In this document: piece by piece, positions 1 to 56,988 of the stretch
How positions within the stretch are numbered: the first letter of the stretch is position 1
Layout: every line of letters starts with the position of its first letter
Assembly: GCF_058153355.1 (NCBI RefSeq)
Contig: NZ_CM177019.1
Strand: one strand, 5' to 3'
Length of the DNA stretch: 64,000 nucleotides
The notes under the pieces: model-generated
Seen by the model: only the letters and a program-made list of their open reading frames with translations
Told to the model about the DNA's origin: nothing
The model's database searches: none
Made by a program: the position numbers and the translations under genes

Positions 1-172
1 GTCGAACGTTTTTCTTGGCGACTGTAAGACCGATACGGGGATGCCCCAGCGAATTCAGGCGGCCGAGAATGGTAATTTGCGGCGTGCCAGCCCGTTGTGG
101 CTGCTGGAAGACGAATGTGAATTGACTGGGAGTTAACAAGCGTAACTCCCTGGGAAATGCGAGCTTAACCAC
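1..172 (-). CDS. rnpA: RNase P protein component, N-terminal part; gene runs off the window start
   Basis: Minus-strand frame from a GTG at 170-172 translates [57 protein letters not shown]; lies directly downstream of rpmH as in the conserved rpmH-rnpA operon. Confidence 0.85.
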
Positions 173-188
173 TCAGGGGTTAGCTTTA

Positions 189-935
<747 letters not shown>

Positions 936-2339
936 GTGTCACTTTCGCTTTGGCAGCAGTGTCTTGCCCGATTGCAGGATGAGTTACCAGCCACAGAATT
1001 CAGTATGTGGATACGCCCATTGCAGGCGGAACTGAGCGATAACACGCTGGCCCTGTACGCGCCAAACCGTTTTGTCCTCGATTGGGTACGGGACAAGTAC
1101 CTTAATAATATCAATGGACTGCTAACCAGTTTCTGCGGAGCGGATGCCCCACAGCTGCGTTTTGAAGTCGGCACCAAACCGGTGACACAAACGCCACAAG
1201 CGGCAGTGACGAGCAACGTCGCGGCCCCAGCACAGGTGGCGCATGCGCAGCCGCAACGTGTTGCGCCTTCTACGCGTTCCGGTTGGGATAACGTCCCGGC
1301 TCCGGCAGAACCGACCTATCGTTCTAACGTAAACGTCAAACACACGTTTGATAACTTCGTTGAAGGTAAATCTAACCAACTGGCGCGCGCGGCGGCTCGT
1401 CAGGTGGCTGATAACCCTGGCGGTGCCTATAACCCGTTGTTCCTTTATGGCGGCACGGGTCTGGGTAAAACTCACCTGCTGCATGCGGTGGGTAACGGCA
1501 TTATGGCGCGTAAGCCGAATGCCAAAGTGGTTTATATGCACTCCGAGCGCTTTGTTCAGGACATGGTTAAAGCCCTGCAAAACAACGCGATCGAAGAGTT
1601 TAAACGCTACTACCGTTCCGTAGATGCACTGCTGATCGACGATATTCAGTTTTTTGCTAATAAAGAACGATCTCAGGAAGAGTTTTTCCACACCTTCAAC
1701 GCCCTGCTGGAAGGTAACCAGCAGATCATTCTCACCTCGGATCGCTATCCGAAAGAGATCAACGGCGTTGAGGATCGTCTGAAATCCCGCTTCGGTTGGG
1801 GACTGACTGTGGCGATCGAACCGCCAGAGTTAGAAACCCGCGTGGCGATCCTGATGAAAAAGGCCGACGAAAACGACATTCGTTTGCCGGGCGAAGTGGC
1901 GTTCTTTATCGCCAAGCGTCTACGCTCTAACGTACGTGAGCTGGAAGGGGCGTTGAACCGCGTCATTGCTAACGCTAACTTTACCGGACGGGCGATCACC
2001 ATCGACTTCGTGCGTGAGGCGCTGCGCGACTTGCTGGCATTGCAGGAAAAACTGGTCACCATCGACAATATTCAGAAGACGGTGGCAGAGTACTACAAGA
2101 TCAAAGTTGCGGATCTCCTTTCCAAGCGTCGATCCCGCTCGGTGGCGCGTCCGCGCCAGATGGCGATGGCGCTGGCGAAAGAGTTGACTAACCACAGTCT
2201 GCCGGAGATTGGCGATGCGTTTGGTGGTCGTGACCACACAACGGTGCTTCATGCTTGCCGGAAGATCGAGCAGTTGCGTGAAGAGAGCCACGATATCAAA
2301 GAAGATTTTTCAAATTTAATCAGAACATTGTCATCGTAA
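936..2339 (+). CDS. dnaA: Chromosomal replication initiator DnaA (GTG start)
   Basis: 467-aa product starting [30 protein letters not shown]; AAA+ Walker [12 protein letters not shown]; the ORF-track start at 924 is an upstream in-frame GTG. Confidence 0.97.
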
Positions 2340-2343
2340 ACCT

Positions 2344-3443
2344 ATGAAATTTACCGTAGAACGTGAGCATTTATTAAAACCGCTACAACAGGTGAGCGGT
2401 CCGTTAGGTGGTCGTCCTACGCTACCGATTCTCGGTAATCTGCTGTTACAGGTTGCTGACGGTACGTTGTCGCTGACCGGTACCGATCTCGAGATGGAAA
2501 TGGTGGCACGTGTTGCGCTGGTTCAGCCGCACGAACCAGGGGCGACGACCGTTCCGGCGCGCAAATTCTTTGATATCTGCCGTGGTCTGCCTGAAGGCGC
2601 GGAAATTGCCGTGCAACTGGAAGGTGAGCGGATGCTGGTGCGTTCCGGGCGTAGCCGTTTTTCGCTTTCCACCCTGCCAGCAGCAGATTTCCCGAACCTC
2701 GATGACTGGCAGAGCGAAGTCGAATTTACCCTGCCGCAGGCGACGATGAAGCGTCTGATTGAAGCGACTCAGTTTTCGATGGCGCATCAGGATGTTCGCT
2801 ATTACTTAAACGGTATGCTGTTCGAAACCGAAGGTGAAGAACTGCGCACCGTGGCGACCGACGGTCACCGTCTGGCGGTCTGTTCCATGCCAATTGGTCA
2901 GTCTTTGCCAAGCCATTCGGTGATCGTGCCGCGTAAAGGTGTGATTGAACTGATGCGTATGCTCGACGGCGGCGACAATCCGCTGCGCGTGCAAATTGGC
3001 AGCAACAATATACGTGCCCACGTCGGCGACTTTATCTTCACCTCCAAACTGGTGGATGGTCGCTTCCCGGATTACCGCCGTGTTCTGCCGAAGAACCCGG
3101 ACAAACATCTGGAAGCAGGCTGCGATCTGCTCAAGCAGGCGTTTGCCCGTGCGGCGATCCTCTCCAACGAGAAATTCCGCGGCGTGCGTCTGTATGTCAG
3201 CGAAAATCAGCTGAAAATCACCGCCAATAACCCGGAACAGGAAGAAGCGGAAGAGATCCTCGACGTTACCTATAGCGGTGCGGAGATGGAAATTGGCTTC
3301 AACGTCAGCTATGTGCTGGATGTTCTGAACGCGCTGAAATGCGAAAACGTGCGCATGATGCTGACCGATTCGGTTTCCAGTGTGCAGATTGAAGATGCCG
3401 CATCACAGTCGGCTGCCTATGTTGTCATGCCAATGAGACTGTA

Positions 3444-3444
<1 letters not shown>
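2344..3444 (+). CDS. dnaN: DNA polymerase III beta sliding clamp
   Basis: 366-aa [40 protein letters not shown]; conserved position after dnaA. Confidence 0.97.
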
Positions 3445-6960
<3,516 letters not shown>

Positions 6961-6985
6961 TGGCGTTAACAATGCGAGCGTGCAT

Positions 6986-7080
6986 GATGCGCTACGCTTA
7001 TCAGGCCTACGAGACTCCTGCAATATTTTGAATTTGCATGATTTTGTAGGCCGGATCAGACGTTAACGCCGCATTCGGCA
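6986..7080. repeat. Pair of REP palindromes (BIME-like) downstream of gyrB
   Basis: gatgcgctacgcttatcaggcctac (6986-7010) and inverted copy gtaggccggatcagacgttaacgccgcattcggc (7047-7080). Confidence 0.7.
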
Positions 7081-7092
7081 AGAAGCTATAAG

Positions 7093-7126
7093 AAAAGGGC
7101 GGAGATCATCTCCGCCCTTTTTATTT
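7093..7126 (+). terminator. Intrinsic terminator candidate after gyrB
   Basis: GC stem gggcggag / ctccgccc followed by a T-run (ctttttatttc). Confidence 0.65.
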
Positions 7127-7199
7127 CTGCAATCCGCGATTATCATCCCGCAGATCTATACTTTTTGAGTCAACACGTAACGCTTTACAGGTGATTATC

Positions 7200-7598
7200 A
7201 TGGGGCTTTTTGATGAAGTTGTCGGCGCCTTTCTGAAAGGCGATGCGGGGAAATATCAGGCTATTTTGAGTTGGGTTGAGGAGCAGGGTGGCATTCAGGT
7301 GCTGTTGGAAAAACTGCAAAGTGGCGGCTTAGGTGCCATTCTCTCAACCTGGTTGAGTAATCAACAGGGCAATCAGCCGGTGAGCGGCGAGCAACTGGAG
7401 TCGGCGCTCGGCACAAATGCGGTGTCCGATCTCGGGCAAAAACTGGGTGTAGATGCCAGTACGGCTTCCAGCTTGCTGGCAGAGCAACTGCCAAAGATTA
7501 TTGATGCTCTCTCACCGCAGGGTGAAGTGTCTTCGCAAACCAATAACGATCTGCTTTCCGCAGGCATGGAACTGCTGAAAGGGAAACTCTTCCGCTAA
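7200..7598 (+). CDS. yidB: DUF937 family protein YidB
   Basis: 132-aa product from ATG at 7200 (MGLFDEVVGAFLKGDAGKYQ); the ORF-track start at 7191 is an upstream GTG. Confidence 0.85.
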   Translation: MGLFDEVVGAFLKGDAGKYQAILSWVEEQGGIQVLLEKLQSGGLGAILSTWLSNQQGNQPVSGEQLESALGTNAVSDLGQKLGVDASTASSLLAEQLPKIIDALSPQGEVSSQTNNDLLSAGMELLKGKLFR

Positions 7599-7600
7599 GC

Positions 7601-7640
7601 AAAAGGGGAGCATGCAACGCGCGTTGCATCCCCCTTTTCC
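7601..7640. other. Near-perfect 40-bp palindrome / hairpin between yidB and yidA
   Basis: aaaaggggagcatgcaacgc | gcgttgcatcccccttttcc, centred at 7620/7621. Confidence 0.5.
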
Positions 7641-7712
7641 CTCGGGTGTTGTACTGATTTTTGAGCGGAATCGCGTTAGCATGGGTCAGGAACCAATCTA
7701 CCTGGGGAACTC

Positions 7713-8525
7713 ATGGCTATCAAACTCATTGCTATCGATATGGATGGCACCCTTCTGCTGCCCGATCACACCATTTCACCCGCTGTTAAAAACGCGATTG
7801 CCGCAGCTCGCGCCCGTGGCGTGAATGTCGTGCTAACGACGGGTCGCCCTTATGCAGGTGTTCACAACTACCTGAAAGAGCTGCATATGGAACAGCCGGG
7901 CGACTACTGCATTACTTATAACGGCGCGCTGGTACAGAAGGCCGCCGATGGTAGCACCGTGGCGCAAACCGCTCTCAGCTATGACGACTACCGTTTCCTG
8001 GAAAAACTCTCTCGCGAAGTCGGTTCTCATTTCCACGCCCTGGACCGCACCACGCTGTACACCGCCAACCGGGATATCAGCCCTTACACCGTGCATGAGT
8101 CGTTTGTGGCGACGATCCCGCTGGTGTTCTGCGAAGCGGAGAAAATGGACCCCAATACCCAGTTCCTGAAAGTGATGATGATTGATGAACCCGCCATCCT
8201 CGACCAGGCTATCGCGCGTATTCCGCAGGAAGTGAAAGAGAAATATACCGTGCTGAAAAGTGCGCCGTACTTCCTCGAAATCCTCGATAAACGCGTTAAC
8301 AAAGGTACAGGTGTGAAATCACTGGCCGATGTGCTGGGCATTAAGCCGGAAGAAATCATGGCGATTGGCGATCAGGAAAACGACATCGCAATGATTGAAT
8401 ATGCAGGTGTTGGTGTGGCAATGGATAACGCTATTCCTTCGGTGAAAGAAGTGGCGAACTTTGTCACCAAATCCAACCTGGAAGATGGCGTGGCGTTTGC
8501 TATTGAGAAGTATGTGCTGAATTAA
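7713..8525 (+). CDS. yidA: HAD-family (Cof-type) sugar phosphatase YidA
   Basis: 270-aa ORF; HAD motif I in IAIDMDGTLL; C-terminal GDQENDIAM motif. Confidence 0.93.
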   Translation: MAIKLIAIDMDGTLLLPDHTISPAVKNAIAAARARGVNVVLTTGRPYAGVHNYLKELHMEQPGDYCITYNGALVQKAADGSTVAQTALSYDDYRFLEKLSREVGSHFHALDRTTLYTANRDISPYTVHESFVATIPLVFCEAEKMDPNTQFLKVMMIDEPAILDQAIARIPQEVKEKYTVLKSAPYFLEILDKRVNKGTGVKSLADVLGIKPEEIMAIGDQENDIAMIEYAGVGVAMDNAIPSVKEVANFVTKSNLEDGVAFAIEKYVLN

Positions 8526-8534
8526 TCAGTGGGA

Positions 8535-8561
8535 GGGCAAACTGCATAAATGCGTTTGCCC
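8535..8561. terminator. Hairpin between the convergent genes yidA and yidX; possible bidirectional terminator
   Basis: gggcaaac ... gtttgccc stem. Confidence 0.5.
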
Positions 8562-8568
8562 GCAGCGA

Positions 8569-9225
8569 TTAACAATTTCTGGTCGTGCATAAAATCAGGA
8601 ACTGGAGTGGTGACGTTACTATATCCAGCGTAAGAGTGACTGGTAGCAGTGCATTAGCGAGGCCGCGCGGAACGCCATCAGTTGCTTTGTACTTATAAAA
8701 TCCCACCGTAAAGGGTTGATGGAAAACCATCACGTTTGAGTAATCCGCTTTTTTATTTTTCTGGTGGATAGAGCCTTTCAGGCCGTCAAGTGCCCAGGTA
8801 CAACGCTGGGTATTACAAATAAAACCATATTGTGTCGCCAGTGCTTTATCTTCCTCATTATCCCAGTCGTAATAGAGCGTTATTGAACCAGAAAAATTAG
8901 TATCACTGCTGCTTAAAATAAATTTCGCGTTATCGGAAACGGTGATTCTTTCGCCATGAATTGCCGGATCGTTCAGCATTTTAACCACCTCGCCGCCGCC
9001 CGTGGTCAACAGATAGTCCAACGATTCACCAACAAAAACATAGCCTTTCGTACCGTTACTATCCTCTGCCAGCGATAACCCCTTAATCGAGTCTGACCGC
9101 CATTGCTCGGCATGTGGAGGACTTGCGGTATTGGAAACCAACCCCCAAGTGAGACAACCGGTCAACGCAAATGCCAAAGAACACAAACCGGCAGCCTTAA
9201 AAAATCCCTTAAAATTCAACTTTAT
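8569..9225 (-). CDS. yidX: Lipoprotein YidX (218 codons if started at the ATA codon 9223-9225)
   Basis: Signal peptide plus lipobox ([23 protein letters not shown]); AAAGGA Shine-Dalgarno 5 nt upstream; the codon at the expected start is ATA, not ATG; the ORF-track frame stays open up to 9342. Confidence 0.75.
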
Positions 9226-9359
9226 GACTAATCCTTTAAACGAGTAGCTAAGCCGTTGAAAGCATACTCTTCTTTCCCTCCTGTTTAGCGCCTGATATCC
9301 CTTTTCAGATTTCTGCCCGACGCATGTCATTTTTTTATGCATTGTTCTTTTTGTGATCT

Positions 9360-9440
9360 AAATTGTAGTACAACAATATAACTTTGTACTACATTACGCA
9401 TACAGCAAACGCGAACGTCATCACGCTGGTACTACAAAAT
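9360..9440 (+). promoter_or_regulatory. dgo promoter / DgoR operator region
   Basis: Three copies of TGTA(G/C)TACA (9364-9372, 9386-9394, 9429-9437) immediately upstream of dgoR; consistent with GntR/FadR-type operators. Confidence 0.55.
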
Positions 9441-9502
9441 TGCCGCGTTATGCATCGATCGGGGTAAAGTAGAGAAGTACATACAGAGCACAAGGACTCT
9501 CC

Positions 9503-10192
9503 ATGACTCTCAATAAAACCGATCGCATCGTCATTACGCTGGGCAAACAGATCGTTCACGGCAAATACGTGCCAGGCTCGCCGCTTCCGGCCGAGGCGGA
9601 ACTTTGTGAGGAGTTTGCAACCTCGCGCAACATCATCCGTGAGGTGTTTCGTTCGCTGATGGCGAAGCGGCTGATTGAAATGAAACGTTATCGCGGGGCG
9701 TTTGTGGCACCGCGTAATCAGTGGAATTACCTCGATACTGACGTGCTGCAATGGGTGCTGGAAAACGACTACGACCCACGGCTTATCAGTGCAATGAGCG
9801 AAGTGCGAAATCTGGTGGAACCGGCGATTGCCCGTTGGGCGGCAGAGCGCGCGACTTCCAGCGATCTGGCGCAGATTGAATCAGCGCTGAACGAGATGAT
9901 CGCCAACAATCAGGACCGCGAAGCGTTTAACGAAGCGGATATTCGCTATCACGAGGCGGTACTGCAATCAGTGCATAACCCGGTGTTACAGCAACTTAGC
10001 ATTGCGATTAGTTCATTACAGCGGGCGGTTTTTGAACGAACCTGGATGGGCGATGAGGCCAACATGCCGCAAACGCTCCAGGAACATAAGGCGCTGTTTG
10101 ATGCGATACGGCATCAGGACGGCGATGCGGCAGAGCAGGCGGCGCTTACCATGATCGCCAGCTCGACACGAAGGTTAAAGGAAATCACATGA
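9503..10192 (+). CDS. dgoR: GntR/FadR-family repressor of D-galactonate catabolism
   Basis: 229-aa ORF; first gene of the dgo cluster. Confidence 0.92.
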   Translation: MTLNKTDRIVITLGKQIVHGKYVPGSPLPAEAELCEEFATSRNIIREVFRSLMAKRLIEMKRYRGAFVAPRNQWNYLDTDVLQWVLENDYDPRLISAMSEVRNLVEPAIARWAAERATSSDLAQIESALNEMIANNQDREAFNEADIRYHEAVLQSVHNPVLQQLSIAISSLQRAVFERTWMGDEANMPQTLQEHKALFDAIRHQDGDAAEQAALTMIASSTRRLKEIT

Positions 10193-11067
10193 CAGCTCGC
10201 TACATCGCAATTGACTGGGGATCGACCAATCTGCGCGCCTGGCTTTATCAGGGCGACCACTGCCTGGACAGCAGGCAATCAGAAGCAGGCGTTACGCGTC
10301 TGAACGGAAAATCTCCGGCTGCGGTGTTAGCAGAAGTGACGACCGACTGGTGTGAAGAGAATACGCCAGTGGTGATGGCAGGAATGGTTGGCAGCAATGT
10401 CGGCTGGAAAGTTGCGCCGTATTTATCTGTTCCTGCCCGTTTTTCGTCTATTGGCGAACAATTAACGTCTGTTGGCGACAATATCTGGATTATTCCCGGA
10501 TTATGCGTTTCTCATGATGATAACCACAATGTGATGCGCGGCGAAGAAACACAATTGATCGGCGCGCGTGCTTTGGCTCCTTCCTCTCTTTATGTCATGC
10601 CCGGTACGCATTGCAAATGGGTGCAGGCCGATAGCCAGCAAATCAACGATTTTCGCACCGTGATGACCGGTGAATTACATCATTTACTGTTAAATCATTC
10701 ATTGATTGGCGCAGGTTTACCACCGCAGGAAAACTCTGCCGATGCCTTCGCGGCTGGCCTTGAGCGTGGTCTCAATGCGCCCGCCATATTGCCGCAGCTT
10801 TTTGAAGTTCGTGCCTCGCATGTGCTGGGAACACTTCCCCGTGAACAGGTCAGCGAATTTCTCTCTGGTTTGTTGATTGGCGCAGAGGTCGCCAGTATGC
10901 GCGACTACGTGGTCCATCAACACGCCATCACCCTTGTCGCCGGAACATCGCTGACTGCACGCTACCAGCAAGCCTTTCAGGCGATGGGTTGCGACGTGAC
11001 GGCGGTGGCGGGCGACACGGCATTTCAGGCTGGTATAAGGAGCATCGCTCATGCAGTGGCAAACTAA
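10189..11067 (+). CDS. dgoK: 2-dehydro-3-deoxygalactonokinase
   Basis: 292-aa ORF; start overlaps the dgoR stop. Confidence 0.92.
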   Translation: MTARYIAIDWGSTNLRAWLYQGDHCLDSRQSEAGVTRLNGKSPAAVLAEVTTDWCEENTPVVMAGMVGSNVGWKVAPYLSVPARFSSIGEQLTSVGDNIWIIPGLCVSHDDNHNVMRGEETQLIGARALAPSSLYVMPGTHCKWVQADSQQINDFRTVMTGELHHLLLNHSLIGAGLPPQENSADAFAAGLERGLNAPAILPQLFEVRASHVLGTLPREQVSEFLSGLLIGAEVASMRDYVVHQHAITLVAGTSLTARYQQAFQAMGCDVTAVAGDTAFQAGIRSIAHAVAN

Positions 11068-11668
11068 ACTCCCGCTGATCGCCATTTTGCGCGGTATTAC
11101 GCCCGACGAGGCGCTGGCGCATGTTGGCGCGGTGATTGACGCTGGGTTCGACGCGGTTGAAATCCCTCTGAATTCCCCACAATGGGAACAAAGCATTCCC
11201 GCCATCGTTGATGCGTATGGCGACAAGGCGTTGATTGGCGCAGGTACGGTACTGAAACCTGAACAGGTCGATGCGCTCGCCAGGATGGGCTGTCAGCTCA
11301 TCGTTACGCCCAATATCCATAGTGAAGTGATCCGCCGCGCGGTGGGCTATGGCATGACCGTTTGCCCCGGCTGCGCGACGGCGACAGAAGCCTTTACCGC
11401 GATCGACGCGGGCGCTCAGGCGCTGAAAATATTCCCGTCATCGGCTTTTGGGCCGCAATACATCAAAGCGTTAAAAGCGGTATTACCGCAGGACATCCCG
11501 GTCTTTGCCGTAGGCGGTGTGACGCCAGAAAACCTGGCGCAGTGGATAGACGCAGGTTGTGCAGGGGCGGGCTTAGGCAGCGATCTCTATCGCGCCGGGC
11601 AGTCCGTAGAACGCACCGCGCAGCAGGCAGCAGCATTTGTTAAGGCGTATCGAGAGGCAGTGCAATGA
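11051..11668 (+). CDS. dgoA: 2-dehydro-3-deoxy-6-phosphogalactonate aldolase
   Basis: 205-aa ORF in conserved dgo gene order. Confidence 0.92.
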
Positions 11669-12702
11669 AAATCACCAACATTACTACGTATCGTTTACCT
11701 CCCCGCTGGATGTTCCTGAAAATTGAAACTGATGAAGGCGTGGTCGGTTGGGGCGAGCCCGTGATCGAAGGCCGCGCTCGTACGGTGGAAGCGGCAGTTC
11801 ACGAGCTGAGTGACTATTTGATTGGTCAGGATCCATCGCGCATCAATGACTTATGGCAAGTGATGTATCGCGCCGGATTTTATCGTGGCGGTCCGATTCT
11901 GATGAGCGCCATCGCCGGGATCGACCAGGCGTTATGGGATATCAAAGGTAAAGTGCTGAATGCGCCGGTCTGGCAACTGATGGGCGGCCTGGTTCGCGAC
12001 AAAATTAAAGCCTACAGTTGGGTCGGCGGCGATCGTCCGGCGGATGTTATCGACGGCATTAAAACGCTACGCGAAATCGGCTTCGATACCTTCAAACTGA
12101 ACGGTTGTGAAGAACTGGGATTGATTGATAACTCCCGCGCGGTAGATGCGGCGGTCAACACCGTGGCACAAATTCGTGAAGCTTTTGGCAATCAGATTGA
12201 GTTTGGTCTTGATTTCCACGGTCGCGTCAGCGCGCCGATGGCGAAAGTGCTGATTAAAGAACTGGAACCGTATCGCCCTCTGTTTATTGAAGAGCCGGTG
12301 CTGGCGGAACAAGCCGAATACTACCCGAAACTGGCAGCACAAACTCACATCCCACTGGCGGCGGGTGAGCGCATGTTCTCACGTTTCGATTTTAAACGTG
12401 TGCTGGAAGCTGGCGGTATTTCGATTCTGCAACCCGATCTTTCTCACGCAGGTGGTATTACCGAATGCTACAAAATTGCCGGAATGGCGGAAGCCTATGA
12501 CGTGACCCTTGCGCCGCACTGTCCGCTCGGCCCGATTGCACTGGCGGCTTGCCTGCATATCGACTTTGTTTCCTATAACGCGGTACTTCAGGAACAAAGT
12601 ATGGGCATTCATTACAACAAAGGCGCGGAGTTACTCGACTTTGTGAAAAATAAAGAAGACTTCAGCATGGTCGGTAATGCCGATCAGTTAAGGATCAGTT
12701 GA
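11665..12702 (+). pseudogene. dgoD: D-galactonate dehydratase, truncated by IS4 after about codon 336; the last 8 codons and the stop are read from IS4 sequence
   Basis: Enolase-superfamily N-terminus ([32 protein letters not shown]); reading frame runs into the IS4 left inverted repeat at 12675 and ends NADQLRIS*; full-length DgoD is about 382 aa as I recall. Confidence 0.88.
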
Positions 12703-14100
12703 CCGATCCAGTGGCTGTGTAAGAATCCGGAAACGCTCACTTGTTTCCGGATTTTTTTATGCACATTGGACAGGCTCTTGATCTGGTATCCCGTTACGAT
12801 TCTCTGCGTAACCCACTGACTTCTCTGGGGGATTACCTCGACCCCGAACTCATCTCTCGTTGCCTTGCCGAATCAGGTACTGTAACGCTACGCAAGCGCC
12901 GTCTTCCCCTCGAAATGATGGTCTGGTGTATTGTTGGCATGGCGCTTGAGCGTAAAGAACCTCTTCACCAGATTGTGAATCGCCTGGACATCATGCTGCC
13001 GGGCAATCGCCCCTTCGTTGCCCCCAGTGCCGTTATTCAGGCCCGCCAGCGCCTGGGAAGTGAGGCTGTCCGCCGCGTGTTCACGAAAACAGCGCAGCTC
13101 TGGCATAACGCCACGCCGCATCCGCACTGGTGCGGCCTGACCCTGCTGGCCATCGATGGTGTGTTCTGGCGCACACCGGATACACCAGAGAACGATGCAG
13201 CCTTCCCCCGCCAGACACATGCCGGGAACCCGGCGCTCTACCCGCAGGTCAAAATGGTCTGCCAGATGGAACTGACCAGCCATCTGCTGACGGCTGCAGC
13301 CTTCGGCACGATGAAGAACAGCGAAAATGAGCTTGCTGAGCAACTTATAGAACAAACCGGCGATAACACTCTGACGTTAATGGATAAAGGTTATTACTCA
13401 CTGGGACTGTTAAATGCCTGGAGCCTGGCGGGAGAACACCGCCACTGGATGATACCTCTCAGAAAGGGAGCGCAATATGAAGAGATCAGAAAACTGGGTA
13501 AAGGCGATCATCTGGTGAAGCTGAAAACCAGCCCGCAGGCACGAAAAAAGTGGCCGGGACTGGGAAATGAAGTGACAGCCCGCCTGCTGACCGTGACGCG
13601 CAAAGGAAAAGTCTGCCATCTGCTGACGTCGATGACGGACGCCATGCGCTTCCCCGGAGGAGAAATGGCGGATCTGTACAGTCATCGCTGGGAAATCGAA
13701 CTGGGATACAGGGAGATAAAACAGACGATGCAACTGAGCAGGCTGACGCTGAGAAGTAAAAAGCCGGAGCTTGTGGAGCAAGAGCTGTGGGGTGTCTTAC
13801 TGGCTTATAATCTGGTGAGATATCAGATGATTAAAATGGCGGAACATCTGAAAGGTTACTGGCCGAATCAACTGAGTTTCTCAGAATCATGCGGAATGGT
13901 GATGAGAATGCTGATGACATTGCAGGGCGCTTCACCGGGACGTATACCGGAGCTGATGCGCGATCTTGCAAGTATGGGACAACTTGTGAAATTACCGACA
14001 AGAAGGGAAAGGGCCTTCCCGAGAGTGGTAAAGGAGAGGCCCTGGAAATACCCCACAGCCCCGAAAAAGAGCCAGTCAGTTGCTTAACTGACTGGCATTA
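12675..14100 (+). mobile_element. IS4, complete (1426 bp) with imperfect 18-bp terminal inverted repeats
   Basis: Left IR taatgccgatcagttaag (12675-12692); right IR cttaactgactggcatta (14083-14100); flanks tcagcatggtcgg and gaccgatttggcc do not form a direct repeat. Confidence 0.93.
12759..14087 (+). CDS. insG: IS4 transposase (DDE)
   Basis: 442-aa product from ATG at 12759 ([31 protein letters not shown]...); the ORF-track start at 12741 is an upstream TTG. Confidence 0.93.
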
Positions 14101-14134
14101 GACCGATTTGGCCCCGTTCTATTTTTTAGTGAAC

Positions 14135-16600
<2,466 letters not shown>

Positions 16601-55673: not shown

Positions 55674-56926
<1,253 letters not shown>

Positions 56927-56956
56927 CATGCCTGCAATCTGGGAAACCGGGGTAGA

Positions 56957-56988
<32 letters not shown>

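Follow-up and report, generated by a model that had tools for sequence, protein, structure and literature searches.

Large inversions between inverted IS copies are known in Shigella, in Yersinia pestis and in the E. coli long-term evolution experiment, and natural inversions are usually symmetric about the origin-terminus axis. Elements of the IS4 subgroup generate direct repeats of 10-13 bp upon insertion (PMC2266710). In E. coli, the dgo genes form one operon with dgoR first, and the sole promoter, which is under the control of DgoR, sits upstream of dgoR together with the inverted repeats that DgoR binds (PMC11705089, PMC12288454). D-galactonate has been described as limiting in the gut, and mutations that derepress dgo have been repeatedly selected during colonisation of mice (PMC12288454). 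The enolase superfamily has a two-domain architecture (PMC9795676), and the solved structure closest to DgoD is PDB 3rr1/3rra, a putative D-galactonate dehydratase of this superfamily from Ralstonia.

Our analysis concerns a stretch of 64,000 nucleotides from contig NZ_CM177019.1 (the window), in which the co-directional five-gene layout dgoRKADT is broken: the promoter region is followed by dgoR, dgoK, dgoA and an interrupted dgoD, and dgoT is found nowhere in the 64 kb. The window likely crosses one junction of a large IS4-mediated inversion in a rare E. coli lineage, an event that would have truncated dgoD and split dgoRKADT. In the history that we propose, two IS4 copies would once have lain in opposite orientation, one in dgoD at codon 337 and one in the glgP terminator, and homologous recombination between them would have inverted the intervening ~340-420 kb, all in one replichore. 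The outcome would be a hybrid IS4 between the 5′ 1010 nt of dgoD and glgP, while the 3′ end of dgoD and dgoT would have moved to the other end of the inversion, away from the only dgo promoter. Transcription that starts at this promoter would probably end at a hairpin just inside IS4. We infer this two-step history together with the structure of the reciprocal junction given below.

The truncated dgoD frame and the IS4 element

The left side of the window carries dnaA, dnaN, recF, gyrB, yidB, yidA, yidX, dgoR, dgoK and dgoA, followed by the dgoD ORF. Our comparison reference for this region was E. coli N96, in which an intact dgoD of 382 aa is followed by dgoT, cbrA and yidR. The features on both sides of the junction are the following.

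9343..9502, plus strand: dgo promoter/operator region, upstream of dgoR; its aligned part is identical to N96 but for one base
9503..10192, plus strand: dgoR, intact, 229 aa; protein identical to N96 DgoR, with Pfam GntR and FCD domains
10189..11067, plus strand: dgoK, full length, 292 aa; covers Pfam DGOK model positions 1-281 of 281
11051..11668, plus strand: dgoA, full length, 205 aa; Pfam KDPG/KHG aldolase, with one substitution relative to N96
11665..12702, plus strand: truncated dgoD ORF, 345 aa; the native DgoD part is 11665..12674
12663..12674: CAGCATGGTCGG, to the left of IS4; comparison with six simple IS4 insertions suggests that this is the dgoD copy of a target duplication of 12 bp
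12675..14100, plus strand: complete IS4, 1426 bp, with IRL at 12675-12692 and IRR at 14083-14100
12721..12763, plus strand: hairpin followed by U7 inside IS4, just before the transposase ATG, from an inverted repeat and an RNA fold
14101..14112: GACCGATTTGGC, to the right of IS4; the sites in EC42405 and S21 mark it as the glgP-terminator copy of the second target duplication
14135..16582, minus strand: glgP, first gene of the presumed inverted segment, which matches the opposite strand of reference E. coli colinearly

The dgoD gene matches its intact N96 counterpart without gaps up to gene nt 1010, and no match is found beyond this point. The native portion comprises 336 whole codons and the GG of codon 337, which the first T of IS4 completes to GGT, so that the glycine is preserved. 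The truncated product consists of DgoD residues 1-337 of 382 followed by NADQLRIS and a stop, both read from the left end of IS4. The preliminary description had the frame native through about codon 336 and reading eight IS4 codons before a stop, and our alignment bears out both statements. Within residues 1-337 the sole substitution relative to N96 is G49S, and a serine at this position is also present in the Ralstonia homologue 3rr1. The last 45 aa (residues 338-382) are missing, with the PGLG and DG..W motifs gone and NADQLRIS in their place. In Pfam searches with the truncated protein, MR_MLE_N is complete (E = 4.6e-31) and MR_MLE_C is strongly matched (E = 5.3e-55), although the latter match ends at model position 191 of 219 as compared to position 218 in intact DgoD. 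Judged from the sequence, the dgoD-IS4 join is a deterministic meeting of two long, near-identical matches and no chance pattern.

The IS4 element has imperfect terminal inverted repeats of 18 bp that are 89% complementary, and both of its ends match E. coli copies annotated as IS4 at ~99%. The transposase ORF runs uninterrupted from the ATG at 12760 to 14087, is read as 442 aa and contains the Pfam domains Nterm_IS4 and DDE_Tnp_1. Compared with the IS4 of E. coli strain S21, which lies after glgP, the window copy differs at 9 of 1426 positions. When these differences were examined for a mosaic, eight of the nine lay within the left-hand 897 bp and the ninth within the right-hand 529 bp, a suggestive split based on too few sites to carry meaning. 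Two IS elements, IS4 and IS621, are the only ones in the 64 kb.

Predicted effects on DgoD and on D-galactonate use

An AlphaFold2 model of intact DgoD, built from 48 diverse sequences (mean pLDDT 94.9), places the barrel strands at about residues 114-120, 142-146, 179-183, 207-208, 231-233, 254-255, 281-282 and 308-310. The C-terminal part of the barrel had earlier been thought to be missing, but in the model all eight strands lie before residue 311, and it is the post-barrel segment that is lost instead. In addition, D183, H185, E209, E235, D258, H285 and E310, which we take to be the metal-ligand and acid-base residues and whose roles were reportedly described by Wieczorek et al. in 1999, are all present in the truncated ORF. 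In the alignment of 48 sequences, conservation reaches 90% or more at four of these positions (E209, E235, D258 and E310). Because these catalytic and metal residues and all eight barrel strands are kept, residual DgoD activity is possible.

The lost segment 338-382 folds in the model into short strands, a PGLG turn, a helix at 354-361 and a terminal hairpin. Its conservation was assessed with 47 homologues of 32-57% identity and about 365-400 aa, all of which align through residues 338-382. Across this set the commonest residue has a mean frequency of 0.498 in 338-382 versus 0.501 in 1-337. G347 of the PGLG turn is invariant, W382 is near-invariant, and G338, P346, L348, G349, D376 and G377 are at least 90% conserved; the segment is also conserved in 3rr1. 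Post-barrel residues in this superfamily reportedly pack against the N-terminal capping domain, an observation attributed to Gerlt, Babbitt and Rayment in 2005. Since the 45 missing residues are as conserved as the rest of DgoD, the truncated protein likely loses folding or activity.

The hairpin inside IS4 folds at -23.5 kcal/mol, with z = -5.7 relative to shuffled sequences, and it probably stops transcripts arriving from the dgo operon. This hairpin was not listed by a simple consensus terminator scan and was revealed by direct folding. Furthermore, BLASTN and TBLASTN returned no match to the 3′ end of dgoD, dgoT, cbrA or yidR anywhere in the 64-kb window, in agreement with the earlier observation that dgoT is absent from this side of the junction; dgoT is missing from the 50 kb downstream of the junction. 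Taken together, the missing conserved 45 residues, the separation of dgoT from the dgo promoter, its absence from those 50 kb and the hairpin in IS4 make loss of D-galactonate use the best prediction for this locus, and one that we consider very likely to be correct.

An alternative is that the truncated DgoD is active enough, and dgoT is expressed through IS4 read-through or from another promoter, for catabolism to persist. The seven catalytic and metal residues and the eight barrel strands retained in the ORF agree with this possibility, as does the lack of nonsense or frameshift changes in dgoR, dgoK and dgoA. At the other end of the putative inversion, moreover, dgoT would be oriented like the IS4 transposase gene and might be weakly expressed through read-through. 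However, the 45 lost residues are conserved like the rest of the protein and include the invariant G347 and the near-invariant G338, D376-G377 and W382, and 47 of 47 chosen homologues align through the lost segment. We therefore regard persistence of the pathway as improbable and retain its loss as the prediction. A second copy of dgoD may exist elsewhere in the genome, and in some E. coli genomes matches to the dgo region occur at up to 5 places.

The remaining dgo genes are full length with complete Pfam domains, as the preliminary description had it in calling dgoR, dgoK and dgoA intact. A search for signs of decay in these three genes found no nonsense or frameshift changes and yielded two private substitutions in DgoK only. 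DgoK carries five substitutions relative to N96, and R55C and A242V are the private ones, unlike every comparison genome that aligned without gaps. The exact DgoK protein is present in NCBI under an E. coli label. A Shigella origin, which the IS-mediated rearrangement had brought to mind, was rejected on the strength of this label and of the presence of just two IS elements in the 64 kb. The intact state of the flanking dgo genes may reflect a recent event.

The putative inversion and competing readings

The IS4 in the window has no target-site duplication, with CAGCATGGTCGG on its left and GACCGATTTGGC on its right, and the partner copy of CAGCATGGTCGG was not found in the window. For comparison, six simple IS4 insertions were extracted from complete E. 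coli genomes. All six are 1426 bp long with perfect duplications of 11-13 bp (GACCCTTTGGC; CGGCAGGTAGG; CAGCGCCGTAGG; CAGCCAGGTCTG; CGGCACATTGTCG; CAGCAATGGCAG), which begin with CAGC, CGGC or GACC. The dgoD target, AAAGAAGACTT / CAGCATGGTCGG / CGGCTTCTTTAAA, likewise has an A-rich left arm, a duplication starting from CAGC and a T-rich right arm. This resemblance to other IS4 targets indicates that IS4 very probably first transposed into dgoD in the normal manner. An IS4 target consensus of the form AAA-N20-TTT did not fit the sites examined and was replaced by the observed pattern.

The right flank points to a second insertion. In E. coli EC42405, which has no IS4 at this location, the uninterrupted glgP-terminator site is AAAAAAAACGGGACCGATTTGGCCCCGTTCTATTTTTT; it consists of the parts AAAAAAAACGG-GACCGATTTGGC-CCCGTTCTATTTTTT and forms the hairpin just downstream of glgP. 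In E. coli S21, IS4 occupies the identical glgP site in the same orientation with a perfect 11-bp duplication. The unlike flanks and the lack of a duplication suggest that the IS4 in the window is a recombinant of two separate insertions. A missing duplication is expected of such a recombinant and is therefore no argument against the identity of the element as IS4.

The sequence on the right side of the junction is consistent with an inversion between these insertions. Positions 14101-64000 are colinear with reference E. coli on the strand opposite to the dgo region of the same records, and after glgP the segment carries glgA, glgC, glgX and glgB and continues to liv, rpoH, ftsYEX, zntA and nikA. 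In NZ_CP169399.1, the dgo part maps to 9743-13017 (+), window positions 14101-39000 map to 330904-355796 (-), and positions 39001-64000 map to 307183-330903 (-). This puts the breakpoints at 13,017 (+) and 355,796 (-), and the same pattern is seen in other references. In reference genomes numbered from dnaA, from which the distances were taken, the interval from dgoD to glgP is ~343 kb in NZ_CP169399.1 and ~421 kb in EC42405. Followed from dnaA, the window thus leads outward as far as dgoD, resumes at the distal end of a ~343 kb segment and returns through it, a path that argues for inversion between inverted IS4 copies. In addition, GC skew changes from +0.040 (1-12674) to -0.043 (14101-64000), with the switch at 12-16 kb, and is negative in 19 of the 24 2-kb windows to the right of the junction. 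Nearly all long ORFs from glgP to ~51 kb are on the minus strand and, if the inversion is real, these genes would face the replication fork.

The two halves of the junction were sought in other data sets. Among 5426 complete E. coli genomes, the dgoD-IS4 junction occurs in none, whereas 18 carry the IS4-glgP junction at the same position and in the same orientation. The absence of the dgoD-IS4 junction from these genomes suggests that the lineage is rare. The exact 345-aa protein was found in the Logan assemblies of SRR31441161 and SRR28786219, which are independent SRA data. Over 11.0 and 5.1 kb, respectively, the contigs share 100% and 99.98% identity with the window, and they extend 28 nt into IS4, so that linkage across IS4 to glgP lies beyond these short-read contigs. 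Two E. coli drafts in NCBI, GCA_015332025.1 and GCA_043012465.1, share their DgoK with the window and have contigs that break off at dgoD nt 1007, where a repeat would be expected to interrupt the assembly. A single faulty assembly does not account for the dgoD-IS4 junction.

The other end of the inversion would have a defined structure. From the glpD/PstS side, the predicted reciprocal junction reads GGCGAAAAAAAACGG GACCGATTTGGC, IS4 from its left to its right end, then CAGCATGGTCGG CGGCTTCTTTAAACCG, the 3′ end of dgoD and dgoT. Exact look-ups of the predicted 48-aa C-terminal ORF at this junction, in M344 and T344 variants, returned other dgoD lesions only, namely an IS1 insertion and +/-1 changes in an A5 run. 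Among GTDB species representatives, the pattern of the IS4 right end, 0-20 nt and CGGCTTCTTTAA gave one chance match, in a Melioribacteraceae MAG. A look-up of GlgP for the reciprocal junction found the protein in >80,000 blocks, which makes it too common as a handle. One Logan contig of 1001 bp (L009) begins at CATGGTCGGCGGC, three bases inside the predicted duplication, and contains no IS4 sequence. With the reciprocal junction not found, the inversion rests on the contiguity of this one assembly.

A stronger reading holds that the inversion is real and fixed in a natural lineage, represented by at least 4 independent data sets, that it is asymmetric, spanning ~340 kb from 13 kb off dnaA, and that the loss of dgoD is possibly one of several convergent, selected losses. 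We consider this full reading speculative and rather unlikely. If true, glg, liv, rpoH, ftsYEX and presumably many more genes would be head-on to replication with their GC skew reversed. The dgoD loss would then join an IS1 allele and the ~7% of complete E. coli genomes (404 of 5426) in which megablast found no match to dgoRKAD.

A rival explanation is a chimeric assembly, in which a simple IS4 insertion in dgoD was misjoined to the glgP copy, and the 3′ end of dgoD and dgoT directly follow IS4 in the actual genome. The dgoD-IS4 and IS4-glgP junctions do occur separately and are linked in this assembly only, the short-read contigs end at IS4, and the reciprocal junction was not recovered by exact look-ups or by the pattern scan. 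A misjoin would also give the same flip in GC skew and the same mapping to the opposite strand. On the other hand, the window is part of a single contig that passes for 64 kb through a 1.4-kb repeat, a length that long reads would normally span, and a misjoin across inverted repeat copies requires a matching misjoin at the other copy. We accordingly assign this explanation a small probability and favor recombination between two IS4 copies. The truncation of dgoD is identical under the misjoin reading.

Deletion of the dgoD-glgP interval including dgoT, in place of inversion, would account for the absence of dgoT, cbrA and yidR from the window but is virtually excluded by the strand and direction of the right-hand match, as it predicts dgoD joined on the same strand to the glpD/PstS side of the glgP IS4, whereas what follows in the window, from glgP and glgA onward to nikA, lies on the opposite strand and belongs to the very interval that would be gone after a deletion; this interval also holds many essential E. 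coli genes.

Comparison with known systems

The predicted phenotype for the lineage is a lack of growth on D-galactonate. As this compound is described as limiting in the gut, a lineage without the pathway may differ in niche or in competitive ability. The junction also offers a precise lineage marker, absent from the 5426 complete E. coli genomes, that flags a putative large rearrangement.

Intact E. coli DgoD shares with the protein in the window the MR_MLE_N and MR_MLE_C domains, the metal and catalytic residues and the gene order dgoR-dgoK-dgoA-dgoD, but the window protein is without residues 338-382, carries 8 foreign residues and is not followed by dgoT. Loss of dgo is not in itself rare in E. 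coli, and other natural lesions are found there, none with the junction described here. For example, IS1 interrupts dgoD of the NCTC strain GCA_900448625.1 at nt 958-966, flanked by a 9-bp duplication; element, position and lineage all differ from those in the window.

The simple IS4 insertions of E. coli, such as those in yicI, in a DUF554 gene, between aroA and ycaL, and after glgP in S21, have the same 1426-bp element with the ends TAATG...CATTA and targets similar to the dgoD site. In these insertions both halves of the target are adjacent, whereas the flanks in the window come from loci ~340 kb apart on opposite strands. In this respect the window resembles the known IS-flanked inversions, with which it shares an IS at the breakpoint without a duplication, distant inverted flanks and a break in GC skew. 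It differs from the usual natural inversions in that the putative inversion would begin ~13 kb from dnaA and stay inside a single replichore. The allele and the pair of breakpoints are new to the collections searched, while insertion of an IS into a catabolic gene and inversion between IS copies are both well known. The locus is otherwise a routine case of IS-driven gene decay and genome rearrangement, and its only mildly unusual aspect is that the putative inversion is near the origin and confined to a single replichore.

Lesions in dgoD and variability of the dgo genes

A second, independent knockout of dgoD is found in another E. coli assembly, GCA_900448625.1, in which the gene carries an IS1 (positions 5187-5954 of the comparison locus L010). 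This element interrupts dgoD at nt 958-966, where it is flanked by a 9-bp target duplication, and it lies approximately 45 nt closer to the start of the gene than the IS4 insertion in the window. The gene also contains a short homopolymer:

window 12642-12646, dgoD nt 978-982: A5 run GTGAAAAATAAAG

The A5 run is altered by +1 or -1 in several public assemblies (loci L008, L011, L012, L015, L016, L018 and L019), which splits dgoD and leaves a 48-aa C-terminal ORF that is called separately and is listed by 331 index blocks. These length changes may be homopolymer sequencing errors or genuine slippage frameshifts. Across 5426 complete E. coli genomes, a megablast match to dgoRKAD (window 9400-12674) is wholly absent in 404, indicating that D-galactonate catabolism is a variable trait within the species.

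The glgP side of the junction

At the other side of the junction, IS4 lies within the hairpin directly downstream of glgP and splits its stem arms apart (window 14101-14134; E. coli glgP loci L003 and L020 for comparison), and glgP transcripts should therefore run into IS4. IS4 occupies the identical glgP site, in the identical orientation, in 18 complete E. coli genomes, whose flank haplotype differs slightly from that of the window (GACCCTTTGGC versus GACCGATTTGGC). This recurrence points either to an insertion that is old and shared or to a hot spot. Separately, the interval between glgP and glpD holds a small island in some E. coli strains (L020 2746-5874; L003 1-2772), encoding two PstS-family (PBP_like_2) proteins and one hypothetical protein, while in other strains glpD directly follows glgP.

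Beyond the hairpin, nearly all long ORFs lie on one strand:

window 14135-51000, minus strand: glgPACXB, asd, liv genes, rpoH and ftsXEY

Because the replication fork from dnaA moves in the direction in which the window plus strand continues, the genes listed here would face it head-on, provided that the inversion is genuine. Further along is an insertion element of a different family, IS621, which is known for its bridge-RNA-guided recombinase:

window 55706-56982: IS621 (IS110 family), 1279-bp, between zntA and tusA
window 55898..56878: DEDD transposase of IS621, 326-aa

The closest reference is without IS621 at this site, and the element has matches elsewhere in 2244 of the 5426 E. coli genomes.

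Target-site pattern of IS4

Seven IS4 target sites were compared, namely those of L003 and L034-L038 together with window 12645-12690. In all seven, the duplication has an A-rich stretch 3-8 nt to its left and, on the right at a distance of 2-5 nt, a T-rich one; the duplication itself often starts with CAGC or CGGC. This pattern agrees with the target-arm specificity reported for the IS4 subgroup, described as 'spectacular insertion specificity in target arms' (PMC2266710).
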